From: a virus
Lineage: Duplodnaviria > Heunggongvirae > Uroviricota > Caudoviricetes
Length of the DNA stretch: 11,118 bases
IMG/VR virus record: IMGVR_UViG_2675903255_000015
Direction: 5' to 3' (one strand)
Shown in pieces: positions 1-7,138 of this stretch. The notes under the pieces were generated by a model. That model was not told the DNA's origin, did not search any database, and saw nothing but the letters and a program-made list of their open reading frames with translations. Made by a program: the position numbers and the translations under genes. Each line of letters starts with the position of its first letter. The stretch's first letter is position 1.

Positions 1-721
1 TGACCACCGTCTTTTCCTGTGGTGGGTTTTGCTGGTGGGCGTGAGGCAGCGGCGCAAGATTTTTTGTGCGCTGCTTCAGTATGATGGTGGCGGTCTGCTC
101 TCCCGGTACGATGTCGCTTTCACGGTACATTGAGCGGATTTTTTCCGCACGCAACCCCAGCGAACGACGTAATACCGCTTCCGGTAGCGCGTCCGCCACC
201 TGATTGCGGACCGCCCACCAGGATAATTCAGCCAGAGATAATTCACGCTCCTGCGTACCGCTTATTGCGTGACCGATGACGTCAATCATCCATGCTGACA
301 GGTTTTGATGAGCAAGTTGCTCGAGTGATTCGGATGTCTGGTCACGCAGCTGGTTGTCGCAGTGCCAGCACAACACCATTGCGCCGGTACCATAACGGTG
401 AATAACGGTTTCACTGTGATGATAGTCACCATGAGGCCACTGGCAGGATTTGACATGACGCAACAGCCAGTCAGACAGTGCACCAGCGCCACCAACAGCA
501 CGAATCACACGCTCATTGCTGAAAAACGGCAGTAATGATTTATCCTCCGCCAGCGGCTGGCGAACGGCAGGGACGATGCCGGACGGCAGACCGCGCATGC
601 TTTTCGGCTCCGGCTCCACAAGCACTCGAGGGTTATGGAATACCTGCATGGATTCACGGCCTGGTTTAAGGACCACCACCCCAAGTTCCGGTACCGGAAC
701 AGGTCGAAGTAATACCCGCAC
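1..721 (-). CDS. nin-region protein, YdfU/DUF968-like (tentative); N-terminal part only, continues past the window start
   Basis: Minus-strand frame open from GTG at 721 (GGAGG 4 nt upstream, 1 nt after the TAA of the upstream gene; alternative ATG at 649) down to position 1 with no stop. Absent from the ORF track because it leaves the window. Translation runs VRVLLRPVPVPELGVV...MQVFHNPRVLVEPEPKSMRGLPSG... and contains a Cys/His cluster (SCQWPHGDYHH...LCWHCDN). Family name rests on recalled Qin gene order (ydfU near hokD), not on a search. Confidence 0.55.
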   Translation of the reverse strand, partial: MRVLLRPVPVPELGVVVLKPGRESMQVFHNPRVLVEPEPKSMRGLPSGIVPAVRQPLAEDKSLLPFFSNERVIRAVGGAGALSDWLLRHVKSCQWPHGDYHHSETVIHRYGTGAMVLCWHCDNQLRDQTSESLEQLAHQNLSAWMIDVIGHAISGTQERELSLAELSWWAVRNQVADALPEAVLRRSLGLRAEKIRSMYRESDIVPGEQTATIILKQRTKNLAPLPHAHQQNPPQEKTVV

Positions 722-722
722 G

Positions 723-1001
723 TTACCTCCAGATGCGTTGCTGGAATGTGCGGGACGGACGCGGTGGGCGCTCGGAGTACGGCAGCCTGACGTAGATTAT
801 CCAGTGACGATAATCGAGGCTGAGGGCTTTCCTAAACTCATACCCACGTCTGCGGTAGTTCTGAATCAGCCATTCGGCCTGTTCTTCAGTGCATGGGGCG
901 TGCCGGAACCAGTCAGATTTGAATGCATGAGAACGCCGCCCGTGCCTGCTGGCAAAGACGGCTGAATTATCAGAATTGTGTAGTCTGGAATTTTGCGCCA
1001 T
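723..1001 (-). CDS. hypothetical basic protein, 92 aa
   Basis: ATG at 1001 with GGAGAAA 5-6 nt upstream. Its TAA stop lies 1 nt before the GTG of the downstream gene, suggesting translational coupling. Product is Arg/Trp/Tyr-rich (MAQNSRLHNSDNSAVFASRHGRR...). No family recognised. Confidence 0.5.
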   Translation of the reverse strand: MAQNSRLHNSDNSAVFASRHGRRSHAFKSDWFRHAPCTEEQAEWLIQNYRRRGYEFRKALSLDYRHWIIYVRLPYSERPPRPSRTFQQRIWR

Positions 1002-1070
1002 CGGCTTTCTCCGGTGGCACAGTGTTACTCAACAGGGGTTCAGCCCTGCGCTGAATTGTAGATGAATTCA

Positions 1071-1328
1071 CTAATCTTCAAAAGCAGAAAAACCAGCCTT
1101 AATCCCAGCTTCTTTCAGAGACGGCAACGATGTGACAAATTCATTTGCACGCAAAATAAAACCATCCGTCACAAGCCCATCCACAAAATGAATTAACGCA
1201 GCTCCACTCTTCCTTTGTTGAGACTGTAAACATTTAATACGGCAGTGGCTGACAATAGCGCCCTTCTCAACGCGCACAGTATAGAGGCCATCTTCACTAA
1301 AAATTTCACGTAATTCTTCGATTCTCAT
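1071..1328 (-). CDS. hypothetical protein, 85 aa (sits where rem lies in Qin, by gene order only)
   Basis: ATG at 1328 with GGAAGGA upstream; the track's first codon at 1331 is TTG. Product MRIEELREIFSEDGLYTVRVEKGAIVSHCRIKC... No family recognised. Confidence 0.5.
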   Translation of the reverse strand: MRIEELREIFSEDGLYTVRVEKGAIVSHCRIKCLQSQQRKSGAALIHFVDGLVTDGFILRANEFVTSLPSLKEAGIKAGFSAFED

Positions 1329-1448
1329 CAACAGAATCCTTCCAGATAAATAGCACTCCCCTGTTCGGGGTCCATCCCTCTTCTCCCTGCGCGCTACTTA
1401 AGTATTTTTGATTCTATTCCGGCGCCGTCCGGAACTTCAAACGCGTTG

Positions 1449-1480
1449 AAAATAAAAACAAAAACCCGCCGAAGCGGGTT
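1449..1480 (-). terminator. rho-independent terminator downstream of hok
   Basis: On the minus strand: AACCCGC-TTCG-GCGGGTT (7-bp stem, TTCG tetraloop) followed by TTTGTTTTTATTTT. The plus-strand reading has no T-tract after the hairpin, so it is unidirectional for the minus strand. Confidence 0.7.
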
Positions 1481-1548
1481 AAGTGCGGGTGCGTTGAGGA
1501 TGCCTGACACATCAGAGGTGGCGAGGGATTTCTCCCCCGCCTGGTCTC

Positions 1549-1704
1549 TTACTCCTCAGGTTCGTAAGCTGTGAAGACAGCGACCTCCGTCTGGCCGGTT
1601 CGGATTCGTACCTCGCAGAGGTCTTTCCTCGTTACCAGTGCCGTCACTATGACGATTAAACAGATGACGATCAGGGCGATTAACATCGCCTTTTGCTGCT
1701 TCAT
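1549..1704 (-). CDS. hokD: Hok-family type I toxin (HokD/RelF-like small membrane peptide, 51 aa)
   Basis: ATG at 1704 with AAGGAG 7 nt upstream. Product MKQQKAMLIALIVICLIVIVTALVTRKDLCEVRIRTGQTEVAVFTAYEPEE matches the Hok/Gef family as recalled, closest to HokD. The track ORF 1549..1761 is an in-frame upstream extension from ATG 1761 (GAGG SD), possibly a mok-like leader reading frame. Confidence 0.85.
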   Translation of the reverse strand: MKQQKAMLIALIVICLIVIVTALVTRKDLCEVRIRTGQTEVAVFTAYEPEE

Positions 1705-1744
1705 AGCCTGCTTCTCCTTGACCTTTCGGTCCGTAAGAGGCAAT

Positions 1745-1803
1745 CTATATGTGACGAGCATATAGGGGCCTCACTTCGATTTATAGTCGGGTGGGGCTTT
1801 TAT
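1745..1803 (+). ncRNA. candidate Sok-like antisense RNA to the hok leader (speculative)
   Basis: Plus-strand hairpin GCCTCAC(1768-1774)/GTGGGGC(1791-1797) followed by TTTTAT (1798-1803) is a plus-strand-specific intrinsic terminator antisense to the hok leader and mok-like start. A TTGACC -35-like hexamer sits at 1718-1723, but no convincing -10 was found, so the 5' end is not defined. Confidence 0.3.
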
Positions 1804-1896
1804 CTATCTGCCGTTGGTGTTCATGCCCGAGGCAGATAGCCTCAAGCACCCGCAGCAATCCTACTTAACTCTGCCGTTACAGCAAACCGTTTTCGC

Positions 1897-1920
1897 CCGA
1901 TATGGGAATTCCCATATCGG
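1897..1920. other. 24-bp perfect palindrome CCGATATGGGAATTCCCATATCGG
   Basis: Exact reverse-complement identity over 24 bp, centred on GAATTC. Lies between the ModA-like gene stop and the hok leader. No T-tract on either side, so not a canonical terminator; possibly an operator for a dimeric regulator or an RNA processing hairpin. Confidence 0.5.
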
Positions 1921-2039
1921 AATGAATTCAGTTCACCTGGCGAGGCTTAGCGTACAATTTTTTCCGTTTTGTGAGCTGCCCCTACATGCCGCTGGCGCGG
2001 CATCCGGAAAAAGAATCCACGTCCTGAAGGACGAGGATG

Positions 2040-2798
2040 TCAAGTGCCTTTCCTAGTCCAGCCATATTTTTTGAATGCAGGCGCCGCTTCATCGGTTTGT
2101 AGCCATTCTGCAAATCGACGGGTTTCATCATTTGCATCCTGACGTACTGTAATGTTCATATCACGCCATATCACGTAGTCTGGCGCTATTTCCACGACAT
2201 CACCAATTTCTGGATTACTGGCTGCCCAGTCAGCCCAGGTTATCCAGACATCTGCTCCAGGCTGATTCTCAAGAGCCTTACGTGCAGTTCCGCTATTGGG
2301 CGCATATAAAATAATATTTTTTCGGATTGCGGCGACAGTTTCTATATTCCCTTTACGTCCGGCAATATCTTCCCAGACGCCAGTGCCTGATGTATTACTG
2401 GTACCACCACCATCATTAACAATTACGCCAATCCCAGGTCTGGTCAGGTCGTCAATACTCCGGATATTTTTAGGATTACCTTTCTTTACCAGTAAAATAC
2501 TTTTTCGCAGATAAAGAGGCTGAATATCTTTTTCACTGAAGCTGTCTTTATGGTCCCGAATGATAGCCAGAGCAGATTGTTCTGATGCGCCAAACAAGAT
2601 ATCTGCATTTTTTTTGGCATCTTCATTCCATTTGTTCTGTGGGCCGTAATGAACGTTCACTATAATACCTGTTTTTTCGGCATAAAGTTTGGCTGCATCA
2701 AGCAAGGCTGTATGCGGGCCACCAGGACCATACAGATTGATATCAGCATAAGCAGCAGAAGACAGGAATATTAAAAAACCTGCCATTATGTTCCTCAT
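2040..2798 (-). CDS. secreted periplasmic solute-binding protein, ModA/AcfC-like (252 aa)
   Basis: ATG at 2798 with AAGGAG 6 nt upstream. N-terminal Sec signal peptide MRNIMAGFLIFLSSAAYA. Overall layout and the C-terminal ...FKKYGW resemble the molybdate/tungstate/sulfate-binding PBP family (recalled ModA ends ...FKRYGF). Markedly AT-rich relative to neighbours, flanked by an AT-rich upstream region, consistent with a moron. Confidence 0.8.
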   Translation of the reverse strand: MRNIMAGFLIFLSSAAYADINLYGPGGPHTALLDAAKLYAEKTGIIVNVHYGPQNKWNEDAKKNADILFGASEQSALAIIRDHKDSFSEKDIQPLYLRKSILLVKKGNPKNIRSIDDLTRPGIGVIVNDGGGTSNTSGTGVWEDIAGRKGNIETVAAIRKNIILYAPNSGTARKALENQPGADVWITWADWAASNPEIGDVVEIAPDYVIWRDMNITVRQDANDETRRFAEWLQTDEAAPAFKKYGWTRKGT

Positions 2799-2962
2799 AA
2801 AAAACTCCTTTTATTGGTTATCATGAAATAAAGTTATAAACACTACAAATAATATATATTACATCCAGATAAACTTATCCGACTTTACCTCGTGCATAGC
2901 TTGTTATTTAAAGTCAACAAAATAAGGAAAATTATACGCATATTGAAGAGTATAAACCTTAC

Positions 2963-2990
2963 ATGTTGATTACATTTTTGTAATCAACAT
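2963..2990. promoter_or_regulatory. 28-bp inverted repeat ATGTTGATTACA-tttt-TGTAATCAACAT upstream of the ModA-like gene
   Basis: Perfect 12-bp arms with a 4-bp spacer, about 165 bp upstream of the ModA-like start in an AT-rich region. No T-tract follows on either strand, so an operator is more likely than a terminator. Confidence 0.4.
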
Positions 2991-3049
2991 CCTGTTTGGA
3001 ATAGCCAGCCTTTAATGGATAACTATTTCTGACAATGCAATGAGTATAA

Positions 3050-3622
3050 TCAAGTCCATCTTCCACTGAGAATTAGAGGCGGCATGCTTTTTCCGGCTCT
3101 TGCCGGATATCCGTAATTGTCCATAATCTGCAGATTTATACCTTCTGCATGACCTGTCAGCGAAAATTTGTCCGGTGTTTCTACGGGAATGACATCAAAA
3201 GTTACACGCACTCGCGTTACCGTGTAGACCTACTTTCCTGCACTTGCAAGATCACAGTGGTGTAACCGTAACAGGAATTTATTCTCTGGACCGGCAGTAA
3301 ATCCCTGAGTGGCGTGGTTCCCATATCAATTTCCCGCCAGGCAGCCTCCATTGCCAGCGTACAGGCTGGAGCCATGACCTGCCCTTTAAATCTGGCCCGA
3401 CCATCCCACCGGACGTGTTCTTCTCCCCTGAACTTAGGTACAGTCATCTCCAGTGGCACAAAAGTGTCAGCGCCATAATTTTTGACCGTTATCGCGCTAC
3501 GGATATTTTGTTGACTGGTGAAAATCACCCCGCAGAATCAGGCTTATTCCCTTAACCTGGGCTTTCATCCTGACCGCCGCCTCACTACGACCAATCAGAC
3601 TGCCGATGCATTTTACCTTCAT
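3050..3622 (-). pseudogene. disrupted gene: three abutting ORF fragments in three different frames on the minus strand
   Basis: Fragments 3622..3497 (MKVKCIGSLIGRSEAAVRMKAQVKGISLILRGDFHQ...), 3537..3217 (...ITVKNYGADTFVPLEMTVPKFRGEEHVRWDGRARFKGQVMAPACTLAMEAAWREI...) and 3229..3050 (VTRVRVTFDVIPVETPDKFSLTGHAEGINLQIMDNYGYPARAGKSMPPLILSGRWT) each read as protein, overlap by 13-40 nt at their junctions, and none has a convincing RBS. Consistent with one ancestral gene of about 190 aa carrying two frameshifts. Family not recognised. Confidence 0.4.
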
Positions 3623-3657
3623 TGTTAGTATCATGATTTCAGGCCTGCACCATCCGC

Positions 3658-4239
3658 TCATTGCCCGGACTTCCGACAAATCCCGGCAACCATATCCCGG
3701 TGCTTGTTCAGCTCCCGCAGCGCGGCGCAGACTCGCTCCCACTTCTGGACATGATTCTTCGCCCTACGCAGTTCGCGATTTGCCATATGCAGCGATGGCA
3801 AAATCAAATCATCTTCTCGCGTTGCAGTAAACGATGGCAGCGACTGCACAATGTCCGCCACAGTTTCTGTTTTAATATCTTCCTGTGTTGCATCTTTCTG
3901 TACCGGTAACGCAACACCGGCTGGCTGAGGAAAGGCTTTACCATCGGTTTCCGCTACCGATTCAACTTTCGGCTCTGCTGGTAAATTATCACCTGGTATG
4001 CAGTAACGAATTTTACCGTTCTGGTTTACGCGAATCAGACGACCTTTGCTGATTGCCATTGCCAGCGTTGAAGCAACTTTGCGGGATGTTGTACCGAACA
4101 GCGTAGCCAGTTCATCCGCCGTTTGTGGTCCGCGTTGTTCAATCGTCGCGGTTAAATCGCACTCTGAGATTTTCGCTTCTGTTGCCGTGGTGGTTTCTTC
4201 TGGCGCTGGCTGTTCCTGCTGAACGTTGTTATCAGCCAC
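3658..4239 (-). CDS. winged-helix (MarR-like fold) DNA-binding protein, 193 aa as annotated from GTG 4239; the frame extends to ATG 4392 across an in-frame TAG
   Basis: Track ORF starts at GTG 4239 with no SD. The same frame upstream has ATG at 4392 with GGGAGG SD, giving [58 protein letters not shown]..., which reads as one protein. The TAG at 4339-4341 is therefore probably a nonsense mutation. The region [32 protein letters not shown] resembles a wHTH. Confidence 0.6.
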
Positions 4240-4425
4240 ACGCCAGGTGTATACGCTTTTATCAACGAAGCCAGCCTTTTTCAGTTCCCACAGCTCGTTC
4301 AGTACTTCTTCACGACTGATATCAAGTCGCGCAGCCAGCTATACCGACGTGGCTTTTCCCATCGCTTTCAGTGCGTCAAAAACAGTCTCCATAAATTTCC
4401 TCCCGGTAAAAAATCACTTCTCAAC

Positions 4426-5091
4426 TCAAACAAAACCAGCCGCTTTCCGGCGTTCATATTCCTGTTTCAGCAACTCAATTGGCGTTGGCCCCGACGGGCG
4501 TTTGGGGGCCGCCAGTTGTCGCCGGACTGGCGGAACGCTCAGGCCGTTACTAACATGCTTTGCCCATTTCGTCAGTTGCCGTTCTGCAAGCCGTTTTAAT
4601 TCCCCTTCGGTCATCTGGCGCTCAATCCCCTTTGAACGCATCTCGAGGCAAATGTGATACAGCACAGGCTGAGACCACGGGTACTTATCACTTCCGTCGT
4701 ATCGCCAGGACTCATTGCGCCAGCGGCGGTACTCCTCCATCACAGCATCCACCGTCAGACCGAATGGATTGGCTCCGCTTTTCGAAATCAGTGCCACAAA
4801 CTCAGCCAGGTCCGGAGGCCATGTTTCACCCGCCCGGCAGCGGTCCATGCACTGGCGGCAGACCTGCCGGATTTGCTGCTCAGTCATCGCGCCAATCTGT
4901 GCAATCCAGAGCTTCGAAGGTGCGGCCCCGTTCTTCTGGATCCAGCGGTTCGAATAAACCACCCCCATGAGTTCCCACAGCTTCCAGGCCGTTTCCGTCG
5001 CTGATAAATCCGTTTTCACGTTCCCACTGCTCACGTGCTGCCCGAATTTCCTGAACTGCCCGTGATGCGGTGCCACCTGGTGCTGCTGCAT
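4426..5091 (-). CDS. replication protein P-like (helicase loader, lambda P family)
   Basis: ATG at 5091 with AAGGGG upstream. C-terminal half ...YPWSQPVLYHICLEMRSKGIERQMTEGELKRLAERQLTKWAKHVSNGLSVPPVRRQLAAP follows recalled lambda P (...YPWKSNAHYWLVTNLYQNMRANALTDAELRRKAADELVHMTARINRGEAIPEPVKQLPV). An in-frame ATG at 4887 overlaps the O stop codon and is an alternative coupled start. Confidence 0.85.
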   Translation of the reverse strand: MQQHQVAPHHGQFRKFGQHVSSGNVKTDLSATETAWKLWELMGVVYSNRWIQKNGAAPSKLWIAQIGAMTEQQIRQVCRQCMDRCRAGETWPPDLAEFVALISKSGANPFGLTVDAVMEEYRRWRNESWRYDGSDKYPWSQPVLYHICLEMRSKGIERQMTEGELKRLAERQLTKWAKHVSNGLSVPPVRRQLAAPKRPSGPTPIELLKQEYERRKAAGFV

Positions 5092-5920
5092 GGTTTACCC
5101 CTTTGCTGACTGGTTTAACCTGCGCCCTGACGTGATTTACGTGACGGGCGAATTTCTGCTCCCACTGAATCTGCGTAAACACTTTCCCCTCCGCTGCCCA
5201 GTAGTCCCGGAAGGCGGCAAGTTCAGCAGGTGTAAATTCTGTCTCCGGCAAAGCCATCCCCCACAACGCAGCCCGTCGTCGAAAATCCCGTGACGGATAC
5301 CAGCTATCGCTCATCGGGAATTTTCCGATGGGTTCGCTCAGGCCATACAGGAATACAGGGGGGGCTGCCTGTAACGACAAAACTTCCTGCTCACTGGTCG
5401 GAGCACTCTCGCGTGCGTTATGTGTGGGGTTTAGATCTTTGGGTTCCTTTGGGTTCCGTGATCCGTTTTTGGGTGTCTTTGATGGAAAATTTGGGTGTCT
5501 TTGGTTATTTTCCATGCAGCTAAGAGTTCTGTTTTTGGGTCTGTTTTGTGCTGAAACATAACCATTTTCGGTACTGTTTTTATTAACAGCACCAATTTTA
5601 CCCACCTTTAAAGACTCCCGTTTTTGGGTGTATTCAGGCTCGGCAACACTTTCTTCTACACCGATAAGTCGGTACACCACAATTTGCTTTGTTCTGCCTT
5701 TTCTCTCACCGGTATCAACAATTAACCCAATCTCCATCAGGTGTCGTAAGCTGTCCTGCACAGTCTTTTTGTTCAGTTCCGTTACTTCTGCCAGTGCAGA
5801 TACAGACGGGTATGCACACAAATCGGCACCGCACATATCAGCAAGCCAGGTCAATACTGACTTACTGGATGAACTGCCGGTTTTCACCTTTTTAGCCCAT
5901 CGTAGTGCATCGATACTCAT
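4880..5920 (-). CDS. replication initiation protein O-like (lambda O family)
   Basis: Preferred start ATG at 5920 (AGGGGGG SD 4 nt upstream; [12 protein letters not shown]...); the track's 5995 start is TTG. C-terminal domain [58 protein letters not shown] matches recalled lambda O (...[53 protein letters not shown]). N-terminus is wHTH-like. The 3' 212 nt overlap the P ORF out of frame. Confidence 0.85.
   Translation of the reverse strand: [346 protein letters not shown]
5438..5635. repeat. ori-like iteron array plus AT-rich segment inside the O gene
   Basis: Six copies of TTTGGGT(G/T)(T/C)C-type repeats at 5438, 5448, 5468, 5490, 5534 and 5623 (two identical TTTGGGTGTCTTTG at 5468 and 5490), with an AT-richer stretch at about 5551-5620. 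In phage lambda the replication origin with its O-binding iterons lies inside O; here the array encodes the K/N/P-rich linker of O. Confidence 0.6.
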
Positions 5921-6443
5921 ACGCCCCCCTGGCAGACATTTGTTTATCTGCAAAGTAATATTGGTATTGCTGACGATACGCGTGCTTGAAAGCAATAGCT
6001 TTTTCTATAAGCTCGTCAGTCTCACGTTCCACAACAACTGGATCCGCAAAAAGCAGCCCGGACTCCACCACATCGCCATATTCTTTGTTTAACCCGGCGA
6101 TCATGTACGTAATGCTTTTTCCGTCAGTAATTTCACAATACAATCTGAAATCGCTGATCCGGATAGCCTCCATAATTGCCGGAATCAGCGCCGTGAATTT
6201 GTCACGCTTATCTCTGGTGTCGATAGCTTTCCAGCGTTCGAATATCTTCACCCGGTTAACGCCCAGCGCCCGTTGATCAACCTCGCCATCATTAAACGTG
6301 ACGCGTTGAACATCGATGTTCGGGCGTTCTTTCAGAGCCCAGAATGCTTCCGTGATTAATATCGTCGCCTGCTCCTGTGTCATTCCTGGTCGGCATACCC
6401 AGGTATCCAGAGCCTCACAAACCTGTTCAGTGGTGATTTTCAT
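5892..6443 (-). CDS. YdaT-like protein at the cII position (183 aa)
   Basis: ATG at 6443. Sits immediately downstream of the cro-like dicC and upstream of O. The segment KFTALIPAIMEAIRISDFRL resembles recalled Rac YdaT (...KLIPAILAILPRELRHRL). Overlaps dicC by 17 nt and the preferred O start by 29 nt. Confidence 0.6.
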   Translation of the reverse strand: MKITTEQVCEALDTWVCRPGMTQEQATILITEAFWALKERPNIDVQRVTFNDGEVDQRALGVNRVKIFERWKAIDTRDKRDKFTALIPAIMEAIRISDFRLYCEITDGKSITYMIAGLNKEYGDVVESGLLFADPVVVERETDELIEKAIAFKHAYRQQYQYYFADKQMSARGAYEYRCTTMG

Positions 6444-6654
6444 TGTTCAACCGCCCCGCCCGCTTTGCCTTACGATATTCGTCATAAACTTTGGGGTCGT
6501 ACTGAAGTTCCCCGCCGGATGCCTCTTGCAGGCGCATCGAGCGACCTTCAGGAACCAGTTCCCCCCATGCAGCAACGCTTGCCAGCCTAACTCCTGCGAC
6601 ATTGGCAAGCTTTGTTTTGCTGCCAAAAAACGCTATAGCATCAATTTTCAACAT
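6427..6654 (-). CDS. dicC: Cro-like regulator DicC (75 aa)
   Basis: ATG at 6654, divergent from dicA. Product MLKIDAIAFFGSKTKLANVAGVRLASVAAWGELVPEGRSMRLQEASGGELQYDPKVYDEYRKAKRAGRLNNENHH matches recalled K-12 DicC over most of its length. Confidence 0.8.
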   Translation of the reverse strand: MLKIDAIAFFGSKTKLANVAGVRLASVAAWGELVPEGRSMRLQEASGGELQYDPKVYDEYRKAKRAGRLNNENHH

Positions 6655-6730
6655 ATCGAAACCCTTAGATTTTCCTAAGGAAACTAGATCGTAGAGAAAC
6701 CTAAGTCAAGAAAAATTAGAATTACCTAAT
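6655..6730. promoter_or_regulatory. dicA/dicC divergent promoter-operator region
   Basis: 76-bp intergenic region. Inverted repeat CCTTAG-n6-CTAAGG at 6663-6680 and a further CCTAAG at 6700-6705. Minus-strand promoter candidate for dicC: -35 TTGACT (6709..6704), 17-bp spacer, -10 TAGTTT (6686..6681), with the inverted repeat just downstream of the -10. Confidence 0.5.
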
Positions 6731-7138
6731 ATGAAAAACGAAACCTTCGGTGCTCGCCTCTTATACAGGCGAAAAAAATTAAAACTGTCTCAGGCCGCAT
6801 TAGGTAAGCTGGTCAAAGTGGCTCACGTAACAATTTCTCAATGGGAAAGAGATGAAACACAGCCAGCGGGGAAGAGATTATTCGCACTGAGCCAGGCGCT
6901 TCAGTGCTCGCCGACTTGGCTTCTTTTTGGAGATGAAGATAAGCAACCAGGCGAACCGATCCCAGATAATCAGCCAGTCAATCTGACAGAAGATCAAAAA
7001 GAGTTGCTTCAACTGTTCGACGCACTGCCTGAGTCAGAGCAAAAGGCTCTGTTGTCAGAGATGCGTGCTCGAGTTGAGAATTTCAACAAACTTTTTGAAG
7101 AACTACTCAAAGCTCGCAAAAGAAGCGCAAATAAATAA
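6731..7138 (+). CDS. dicA: prophage repressor DicA (HTH XRE family, 135 aa)
   Basis: Product MKNETFGARLLYRRKKLKLSQAALGKLVKVAHVTISQWERDETQPAGKRLFALSQALQCSPTWLLFGDEDKQPGEP...MRARVENFNKLFEELLKARKRSANK matches recalled K-12 DicA in length and sequence, with the HTH at residues about 20-40. Confidence 0.85.
   Translation: MKNETFGARLLYRRKKLKLSQAALGKLVKVAHVTISQWERDETQPAGKRLFALSQALQCSPTWLLFGDEDKQPGEPIPDNQPVNLTEDQKELLQLFDALPESEQKALLSEMRARVENFNKLFEELLKARKRSANK

Follow-up and report, generated by a model that had tools for sequence, protein, structure and literature searches.

A conserved palindrome upstream of the prophage-borne adherence gene paa (adfO) of Escherichia coli O157:H7 as a candidate HprR/CusR operator

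In this work, we analyzed an 11,118-nt stretch of viral DNA (Caudoviricetes; IMG/VR record IMGVR_UViG_2675903255_000015; hereafter the window), with particular regard to the perfect inverted repeat that lies upstream of the open reading frame (ORF) at 2040-2798. This ORF is paa (adfO, Z2053) of the prophage CP-933O/OI-57 from E. coli O157:H7, an assignment of which we are practically certain. Here, the upstream region of paa formally matches the layout of the promoters controlled by HprR and CusR, and we consider it reasonably probable, judging from the DNA, that one or both of these regulators bind the palindrome and activate the gene. In the literature that we searched, there was no statement of CusR or HprR control of paa, nor any reading of the palindrome as an operator. 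The novelty is limited to this operator reading; neither paa itself nor its place in the prophage is new, paa/adfO being a catalogued virulence-associated marker of OI-57.

As we envisage it, the operator would consist of three half-sites, these being ATTACA-N4-TGTAAT followed after 5 nt by TGTAAG, with the center of the palindrome at about -52, the third half-site over the -35 position, and a promoter carrying a perfect TATAAT. The putative transcription start of paa would fall at about 2924, giving a 5' untranslated region of about 126 nt. Phosphorylated chromosomal HprR (responsive to hypochlorous acid (HOCl) and hydrogen peroxide) and/or CusR (responsive to copper and silver) would bind there and activate paa, and the gene would join the periplasmic copper/oxidant response independently of prophage induction.

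A first-pass annotation of this DNA had drawn attention to a strong Shine-Dalgarno sequence, an AT-rich upstream region, and a perfect repeat with 12-bp arms, and had proposed from these an independent expression, possibly under repressor or H-NS control. The first two features were confirmed, with AAGGAG positioned shortly before the ATG (Table 1) and a G+C content of 27% in the 200 nt upstream of paa vs about 50% in the flanks. The repeat is likewise present in full, although the conserved element proves to be a 16-nt core together with a third half-site, and its match is to an OmpR-family activator site (HprR/CusR box), with no likeness to a phage-repressor or H-NS operator. The window has two perfect inverted repeats whose arms measure 12 nt or more and whose loop does not exceed 10 nt, vs 0.003 in block shuffles, and ATTACA-N4-TGTAAT occurs once vs 0.02 expected.

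For the conservation of the palindrome, we compared ten upstream lineages: that of the window, those of three plasmid types, and others from metagenomic and chromosomal relatives, among which protein identity falls as low as 73%. No other 16-mer in the 5' region was as well conserved as ATTACAAAAATGTAAT (2984-2969, paa strand), which had a mean column conservation of 0.994, as compared to 0.70-0.89 for the remaining 5' region of paa, including the Shine-Dalgarno and start-codon region. In fact, the 16-nt core is intact in two lineages whose other upstream DNA lies beyond megablast detection. The outer 6 nt of each 12-nt arm are lineage-specific and elsewhere vary without compensating changes, and therefore it is the 6+4+6 DNA palindrome that is conserved, and not the hairpin. 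Moreover, the third half-site is kept as YGTAAG across the paa lineages, with TGTCAG in one. Upstream of homologs with 67-69% identity, the core is found in degenerate or intact form in Providencia alcalifaciens (CTTACAAAAATGTAAT) and in a metagenomic relative (ATTACAAAACTGTAAT). As read from these alignments, the palindrome stands out as a strong phylogenetic footprint, as would be expected of a control element. When viral contigs were scanned with an 18-mer, 42 of the 62 matches belonged to this same prophage with paa; the remaining 20 came from unrelated environmental contigs without paa and were taken as chance or truncated matches.

According to the published description (PMC9302797; bioRxiv 10.1101/2021.09.09.459708), CATTACAAAATTGTAATG is the box for HprR (YedW) and CusR that lies between hprR and hiuH, and we confirmed both the hiuH box and the cusC box in K-12 DNA. 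When set against the hiuH box, the paa core has identical half-sites and a spacer of equal length, and it fits the pattern AT(T/G)ACA-N4-TGT(A/C)AT. Read in the order of box, next 5 nt, third half-site, and downstream hexamer, the paa promoter has ATTACAAAAATGTAAT, caaca, TGTAAGGTT, and TATAAT (32 nt after the box), the hiuH promoter has ATTACAAAATTGTAAT, gctgc, TGTAAGGTT, and TATCCT (33 nt), and the cusC promoter has ATGACAATTTTGTCAT, ttttc, TGTCAC, and TAAAGT (33 nt). A TAnnnT hexamer follows the box at a distance of 32-33 nt in every paa lineage as well as in hiuH and cusC. When aligned locally, the regulatory regions of paa and hiuH matched over 44 nt with a score of 24, as against 11.6 +/- 1.9 (maximum of 21) in 1000 shuffles. 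Within 1.64 Mb of compared DNA, the composite motif was found only at paa-family genes, cusC, hiuH, and a DUF305/YncE-like pair. The consensus sites for FNR, CRP, Fur, LexA, TyrR, ArgR, PhoB, PhoP, OmpR, and EvgA were rejected for wrong spacing or half-site orientation, and of the other regulators compared, CpxR alone comes near, yet its site is 1 nt off in its spacing.

Plasmid pE105-3 (4030-6875 of the compared stretch) carries, on one strand, a box, a DUF305 gene, a gene for a YncE-like propeller, a second box (ATTACAAAAATGTAAT), and a paa-like gene. Here, the first box, ahead of DUF305, is ATGACAAAAATGTAAT, which is a hybrid of cusC-type and hiuH-type half-sites, and the three genes of the cluster encode predicted periplasmic proteins. 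DUF305 proteins include the copper-binding CopM. The same cluster is also found in CP114129, in CP022280, and in one further stretch at 409-3256. Whether paa/adfO, its plasmid paralogs, and the adjacent plasmid DUF305/YncE-like genes constitute horizontally spread members of the HprR/CusR regulon is, in our estimation, an evenly balanced question. In Methylopila jiangsuensis (1749-4723 of the compared stretch), a distant paa homolog (44% identity) sits directly downstream of an OmpR-family regulator/kinase pair, of which the regulator shares 34% identity with CusR and HprR alike, an arrangement that may hint at two-component control being old in the paa family.

Published RNA sequencing of strain EDL933 in bovine digestive contents vs M9-glucose provides expression values (log2 fold changes, in tables of selected genes only) for several of the genes concerned. 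After 6 h, Z2053 (paa) was raised in rumen (+2.43) and rectum (+3.17) contents and not differential in those of the small intestine, with +2.90 for rectum vs small intestine. For cusC, the change was +3.49 in the rumen at 6 h, with no differential expression in the small intestine or rectum, and for cusF it was +4.03 in the rumen and +2.22 in the small intestine at 6 h, with none in the rectum; neither gene is listed for rectum vs small intestine. Conversely, yedZ (msrQ, in the hiuH operon) was not differential in the rumen or small intestine at 6 h and gave +2.68 in the rectum at 6 h and +2.7 for rectum vs small intestine. Within these selected-gene tables, Z2053 is induced in the contents where cusC and cusF (rumen) or msrQ (rectum) are induced. 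This points to regulated Z2053 expression from an uninduced lysogen and is circumstantially compatible with the HprR/CusR proposal. According to a 2026 study, an O157 hprR mutant shows poor HeLa adherence and poor colonization, and chromatin immunoprecipitation sequencing of HprR in O157 yielded 41 peaks (PMC13064566).

Several points weigh against control by HprR or CusR. A simple sigma-70 scan called no promoter upstream of paa, because there is no -35 match, which is expected for an activator-dependent promoter. In addition, the hiuH and cusC -10 hexamers used for the spacing are sequence readings and not mapped starts, and no such box precedes the homologs from E. albertii, Citrobacter, and Edwardsiella. 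The expression fit is imperfect as well, with cusF being up in small-intestine content at 6 h and Z2053 not. Moreover, paa/adfO goes unmentioned in the main text of the HprR study (PMC13064566). The adhesin role ascribed to Paa comes from published mutant phenotypes.

Among the alternatives, the one that survives best, though we regard it as unlikely, is that the palindrome serves as the operator of some other regulator (CpxR-like OmpR-family, plasmid, or prophage) or that the region undergoes H-NS/Ler-type silencing, in which case the HprR/CusR likeness would be incidental. The low G+C content upstream of paa is typical of H-NS targets, and this AT-rich region may be silenced by H-NS. GTAAT-N6-GTAAG resembles the CpxR repeat GTAAA-N5-GTAAA, and no regulator gene travels with the paa module, so any core regulator could be involved. 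On the other hand, the HprR/CusR likeness extends to the two half-sites and the length of their spacer, and also to the third half-site and the spacing between box and -10 hexamer, whereas the CpxR repeat is misfitted by the single nucleotide already mentioned, and H-NS leaves an invariant 16-nt palindrome amid diverging AT-rich DNA without explanation. Quite improbable, in our view, is that the repeat has no present regulatory role, being either a structural or recombination mark at the edge of a mobile module or an inert relic of a copied hiuH-like promoter. This would accommodate the end of prophage/plasmid homology 9-17 nt past the repeat, where a truncated fimbrial gene follows from 3000, as well as the second perfect 24-bp palindrome on the other side of paa (1897-1920), and the 44-nt similarity to hiuH could indeed be one of common descent. 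A relic, however, is expected to decay, whereas the core is better conserved than the translation start region, even where the neighboring DNA is past megablast detection; the uncompensated variation of the outer arms argues that hairpin stability is not the conserved property, and the distance from the box to the -10-like hexamer is fixed. Very improbable indeed is an intrinsic terminator or insulator hairpin that would block read-through from the fimbrial remnant or the upstream early operon of the phage. In this lineage, the 2963-2990 repeat does form a stable RNA hairpin (-14.3 kcal/mol, z = -5.1), and it separates paa from upstream genes of the same strand. Its stem, however, is AT-rich and has no U-tract (GUAAGGUUUAU comes next), the terminator scan made no call at the repeat, and only the 6-bp AT-rich arms are complementary in most lineages, which is too weak for a terminator.

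Were HprR and/or CusR to activate paa, a mobile adherence factor would be tied to the core two-component systems that sense copper and hypochlorite. Copper is abundant in pig and cattle feed, and either this metal or neutrophil-type oxidants (HOCl) would then turn on an adherence factor of enterohemorrhagic E. coli and of porcine enteropathogenic and enterotoxigenic E. coli. Since HprR and CusR are counted as near single-target factors in K-12, their regulon would be enlarged and would acquire its first targets in the accessory genome. Such control would also give a simple account of Z2053 induction in bovine rumen and rectum contents, and would connect the poor adherence of the adfO and hprR mutants of O157, with paa perhaps accounting for part of the hprR defect. 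Paa itself might then be a periplasmic protein of stress or homeostasis, next to CusF, HiuH, MsrP, and the DUF305 proteins, and not an adhesin in the classical sense.

The operator, promoter, gene, and terminator together make up a module of about 1.03 kb (Table 1). Plasmid paralogs of paa with 86-89% DNA identity align to window positions 1972-2992 only, and weak similarity upstream of the module runs to about 2999. The plasmids in question are IncF, and some of their paa copies are found beside IS1 and an STa toxin gene. On the far side of the upstream edge, window positions 3000-3456 share 86% identity with the intact ECP_RS15175 from a chaperone-usher fimbrial operon of E. coli 536, and RefSeq annotates a frameshifted 'fimbrial protein' pseudogene in this place. 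From the limits of the plasmid alignment and the fimbrial identity that starts at 3000, therefore, the paa module is, as judged by these comparisons, a mobile unit of about 1.03 kb, shared among prophage, plasmids, and islands, to which a fimbrial remnant has been joined here. In E. coli 536, the fimbrial operon of ECP_RS15175 adjoins pgtABC, and plasmid paralogs of paa are also located near fimbrial operons (pEsST2350_SE_2). This suggests that the prophage acquired paa from an adhesin island. At the downstream edge, the GC-rich hairpin, which looks like a repetitive extragenic palindrome, may be a stabilizer of the mRNA 3' end or a recombination edge. The second perfect palindrome, CCGATATGGGAA joined to TTCCCATATCGG, is 24 bp long and loopless, has a central EcoRI site, and lies within an 80-nt junction between the end of the hokD/sok homology at 1893 and the start of the paa module at about 1973. 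As RNA, this palindrome gives -18.3 kcal/mol; it accompanies paa in its prophage form alone (576 genomes) and is absent from the plasmids.

Table 1. Positions of paa, its predicted control elements, and neighboring features in the window
Feature	Position	Strand	Basis or remark
paa/adfO coding sequence, 252 aa, AcfC/PEB3-family periplasmic solute-binding protein	2040-2798	-	Pfam, PDB, and RefSeq matches
Predicted Sec signal peptide codons, residues 1-18, cleavage AYA/D	2745-2798	-	Read from sequence
Shine-Dalgarno AAGGAG	2805-2810	-	6 nt before ATG; sequence; kept in paa lineages
Predicted -10 hexamer TATAAT	2931-2936	-	Spacing from box
Third half-site TGTAAG	2958-2963	-	5 nt downstream of core palindrome, over -35 position
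Core palindrome of 16 nt, ATTACA-AAAA-TGTAAT, candidate HprR/CusR box	2969-2984		Conservation and likeness to published box
Perfect inverted repeat, full 12+12, 4-nt loop	2963-2974 / 2979-2990		Arms 100% complementary
paa module, about 1.03 kb (operator, promoter, gene, terminator)	1973-2999	-	Common to prophage and plasmid copies
Terminator-like hairpin CGTCCTTCAGGACG with T-rich tail	2010-2033	-	Just past paa stop codon; terminator scan; kept in plasmid copies
GC-rich hairpin ATGCCGCTGGCGCGGCAT, CCTAC before it	1985-2002		Downstream module edge; sequence; kept in plasmid paralogs
Fimbrial subunit pseudogene, frameshifted, truncated at both ends	3000-3528	-	Abuts module
dicA-like repressor gene	6731-7138	+	
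cro/dicC-like gene	6427-6654	-	First of - strand gene order
ydaT-like gene		-	Between cro/dicC-like and O-like genes
O-like replication gene	4880-5995	-	
P	4426-5091	-	
DUF1627 protein gene, small ORF, fimbrial pseudogene, then paa		-	Order after P
hokD (ckf)	1549-1704	-	Directly after paa in - strand order
rem, ydfU, rusA, Q	Beyond window		Following hokD/sok

With regard to its setting, paa is placed downstream of the replication genes, in the early-right, nin-like region where lambdoid phages carry accessory genes, and it is inserted between the replication/DUF1627 genes and hokD-rem-ydfU-rusA-Q, with the insert having a G+C content of 27-41% vs about 50%. The earlier description of the gene as a prophage moron is borne out by its being an extra gene of deviant G+C content between conserved phage genes, though the module is also found outside phages. 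A promoter and terminator of its own, in the manner of a moron, are both predicted, and Z2053 transcripts are regulated in uninduced EDL933. As for the empty site, the joined flanks (1500-1893 plus 3530-4000) are nowhere adjacent in 5,426 E. coli genomes. We found no ABC (ATP-binding cassette) transporter genes in the window or among the annotated neighbors of paa, and inspection by eye of the homologs in eight other genera gave no adjacent ABC transporter partner. A misassembled part of an ABC transporter operon, as considered at first pass, is contradicted by the same arrangement being found in 574 of the 5,426 complete E. coli genomes, each with the whole 1500-3600 stretch.

On the other side of paa from the repeat, hokD (ckf) and sok form a type I toxin-antitoxin locus at 1459-1851. 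In the Rfam scan of the window, sok (103.9 bits at 1702-1851) was alone above threshold, with a weak sub-threshold isrK-like match at 1459-1540 and nothing at the 2963-2990 palindrome. The O-like gene, intact in the window, is split by IS1203 in strain PV15-279 (12381-14733 of the compared stretch).

Concerning the identity of the gene, window 1500-3600 shares 100% DNA identity with many E. coli O157:H7 chromosomes. In RefSeq (PGAP), the gene with 100% identity is entered as 'paa: AcfC family adhesin Paa', while GenBank phage records locate it in an ompW-integrated prophage (PPompW) under the label 'Paa/adherence factor AdfO'. Because of its 100% identity to annotated paa, this assignment is not reasonably refutable, and a protein that had seemed unexpected in a phage region is the known paa/adfO product of OI-57. 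According to a review of O-islands (PMC8565820), adfO is z2053 in OI-57 and adjoins ckf (z2054, a hokD homolog), and the adfO mutant adheres more weakly to HeLa cells (citing Ho 2008) and produces less Z1931 and Z3065. In K-12, zinT/yodA (Z3065 in EDL933) lies directly downstream of the HprR/CusR-controlled hiuH-msrPQ (10857-11507 of the compared stretch); the reported lowering of its product in the adfO mutant links Paa to the hiuH locus without an explanation.

AcfC, Paa, and PEB3 are described as relatives, with AcfC being periplasmic (PMC5976639). Residues 20-247 of Paa match positions 1-226/227 of the SBP_bac_11 profile in Pfam (E 5.5e-34, 118 bits vs a cut-off of 25). The PEB3 structures 3FIR and 3FJG match the 252-residue protein at 1e-81 and the AcfC structure 4JB7 does so at 3.5e-81, in both cases over residues 11/16-248. 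Because structures exist (2HXW, 3FJG, and 4JB7), the fold of Paa is settled. The AcfC half of the original 'ModA/AcfC-like' label is thus retained, whereas its ModA half is not, with TIGR01256 giving 18.3 bits vs a cut-off of 62.5 and NF007958 giving 11.7 vs 253. A sulfate-binding protein identity was rejected as well (22 bits vs cut-offs of 155-288).

The signal peptide ascribed to the binding protein at first pass is upheld as a predicted Sec peptide with a conserved junction. Thus, the Paa N-terminus, MRNIMAGFLIFLSSAAYA/DINLYGPGGPH, satisfies the A-x-A rule on its sequence alone, the junction A/D(I/V)NLYGPGGPH is kept across the family alignment, including PEB3 and AcfC, and the mature PEB3 crystal chains begin at the residue aligned with D19 of Paa. 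Moreover, the loop S-N-T-S-G-T-G/A-x-W-E-D is identical in the alignment of Paa, PEB3, and enterobacterial homologs, and this loop presumably holds the ligand. Going by these relatives and the literature, Paa would be exported by Sec and cleaved after A18, and the periplasmic protein would bind a small anionic ligand through the SNTSGTGVWED loop. As per published work, Paa would promote adherence and colonization.

In comparison with known systems, Paa (porcine attaching-effacing associated protein)/AdfO of O157:H7 OI-57 is the same gene as that in the window (100% DNA identity, beside hokD/ckf as published), and the gene is without differences. ModA, Sbp, and CysP have the superfamily fold in common with Paa (SBP_bac_11 in Pfam, type II periplasmic binding protein), but Paa scores far under the cut-offs of these families and is without a permease or ATPase partner. 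Closer are PEB3 from Campylobacter jejuni (2HXW and 3FJG) and AcfC from Vibrio cholerae (4JB7), with which the entire mature protein aligns (about 1e-81), and all three are orphan periplasmic binding proteins with a link to colonization. Here, the residue before the SNTSGTG loop is a lysine in PEB3 (the position changed in the 3FIR variant) and a threonine in Paa. PEB3 is described as a binder of phosphometabolites, such as 3-phosphoglycerate, and AcfC as a binder of sulfated ligands (PMC5976639). While acfC belongs to the ToxT-controlled acfB operon, paa stands alone. With respect to the promoters, hiuH-msrPQ and cusCFBA of K-12 and paa all have a palindrome with 6-bp arms and a 4-bp spacer, which is ATTACA/TGTAAT in both hiuH and paa, and all of their products are periplasmic or envelope proteins. 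The K-12 boxes are situated in divergent intergenic regions beside the genes of their regulators, with about 87 nt separating them from the start codon, whereas the paa box lies about 186 nt from the ATG, without a linked regulator, and on mobile DNA.

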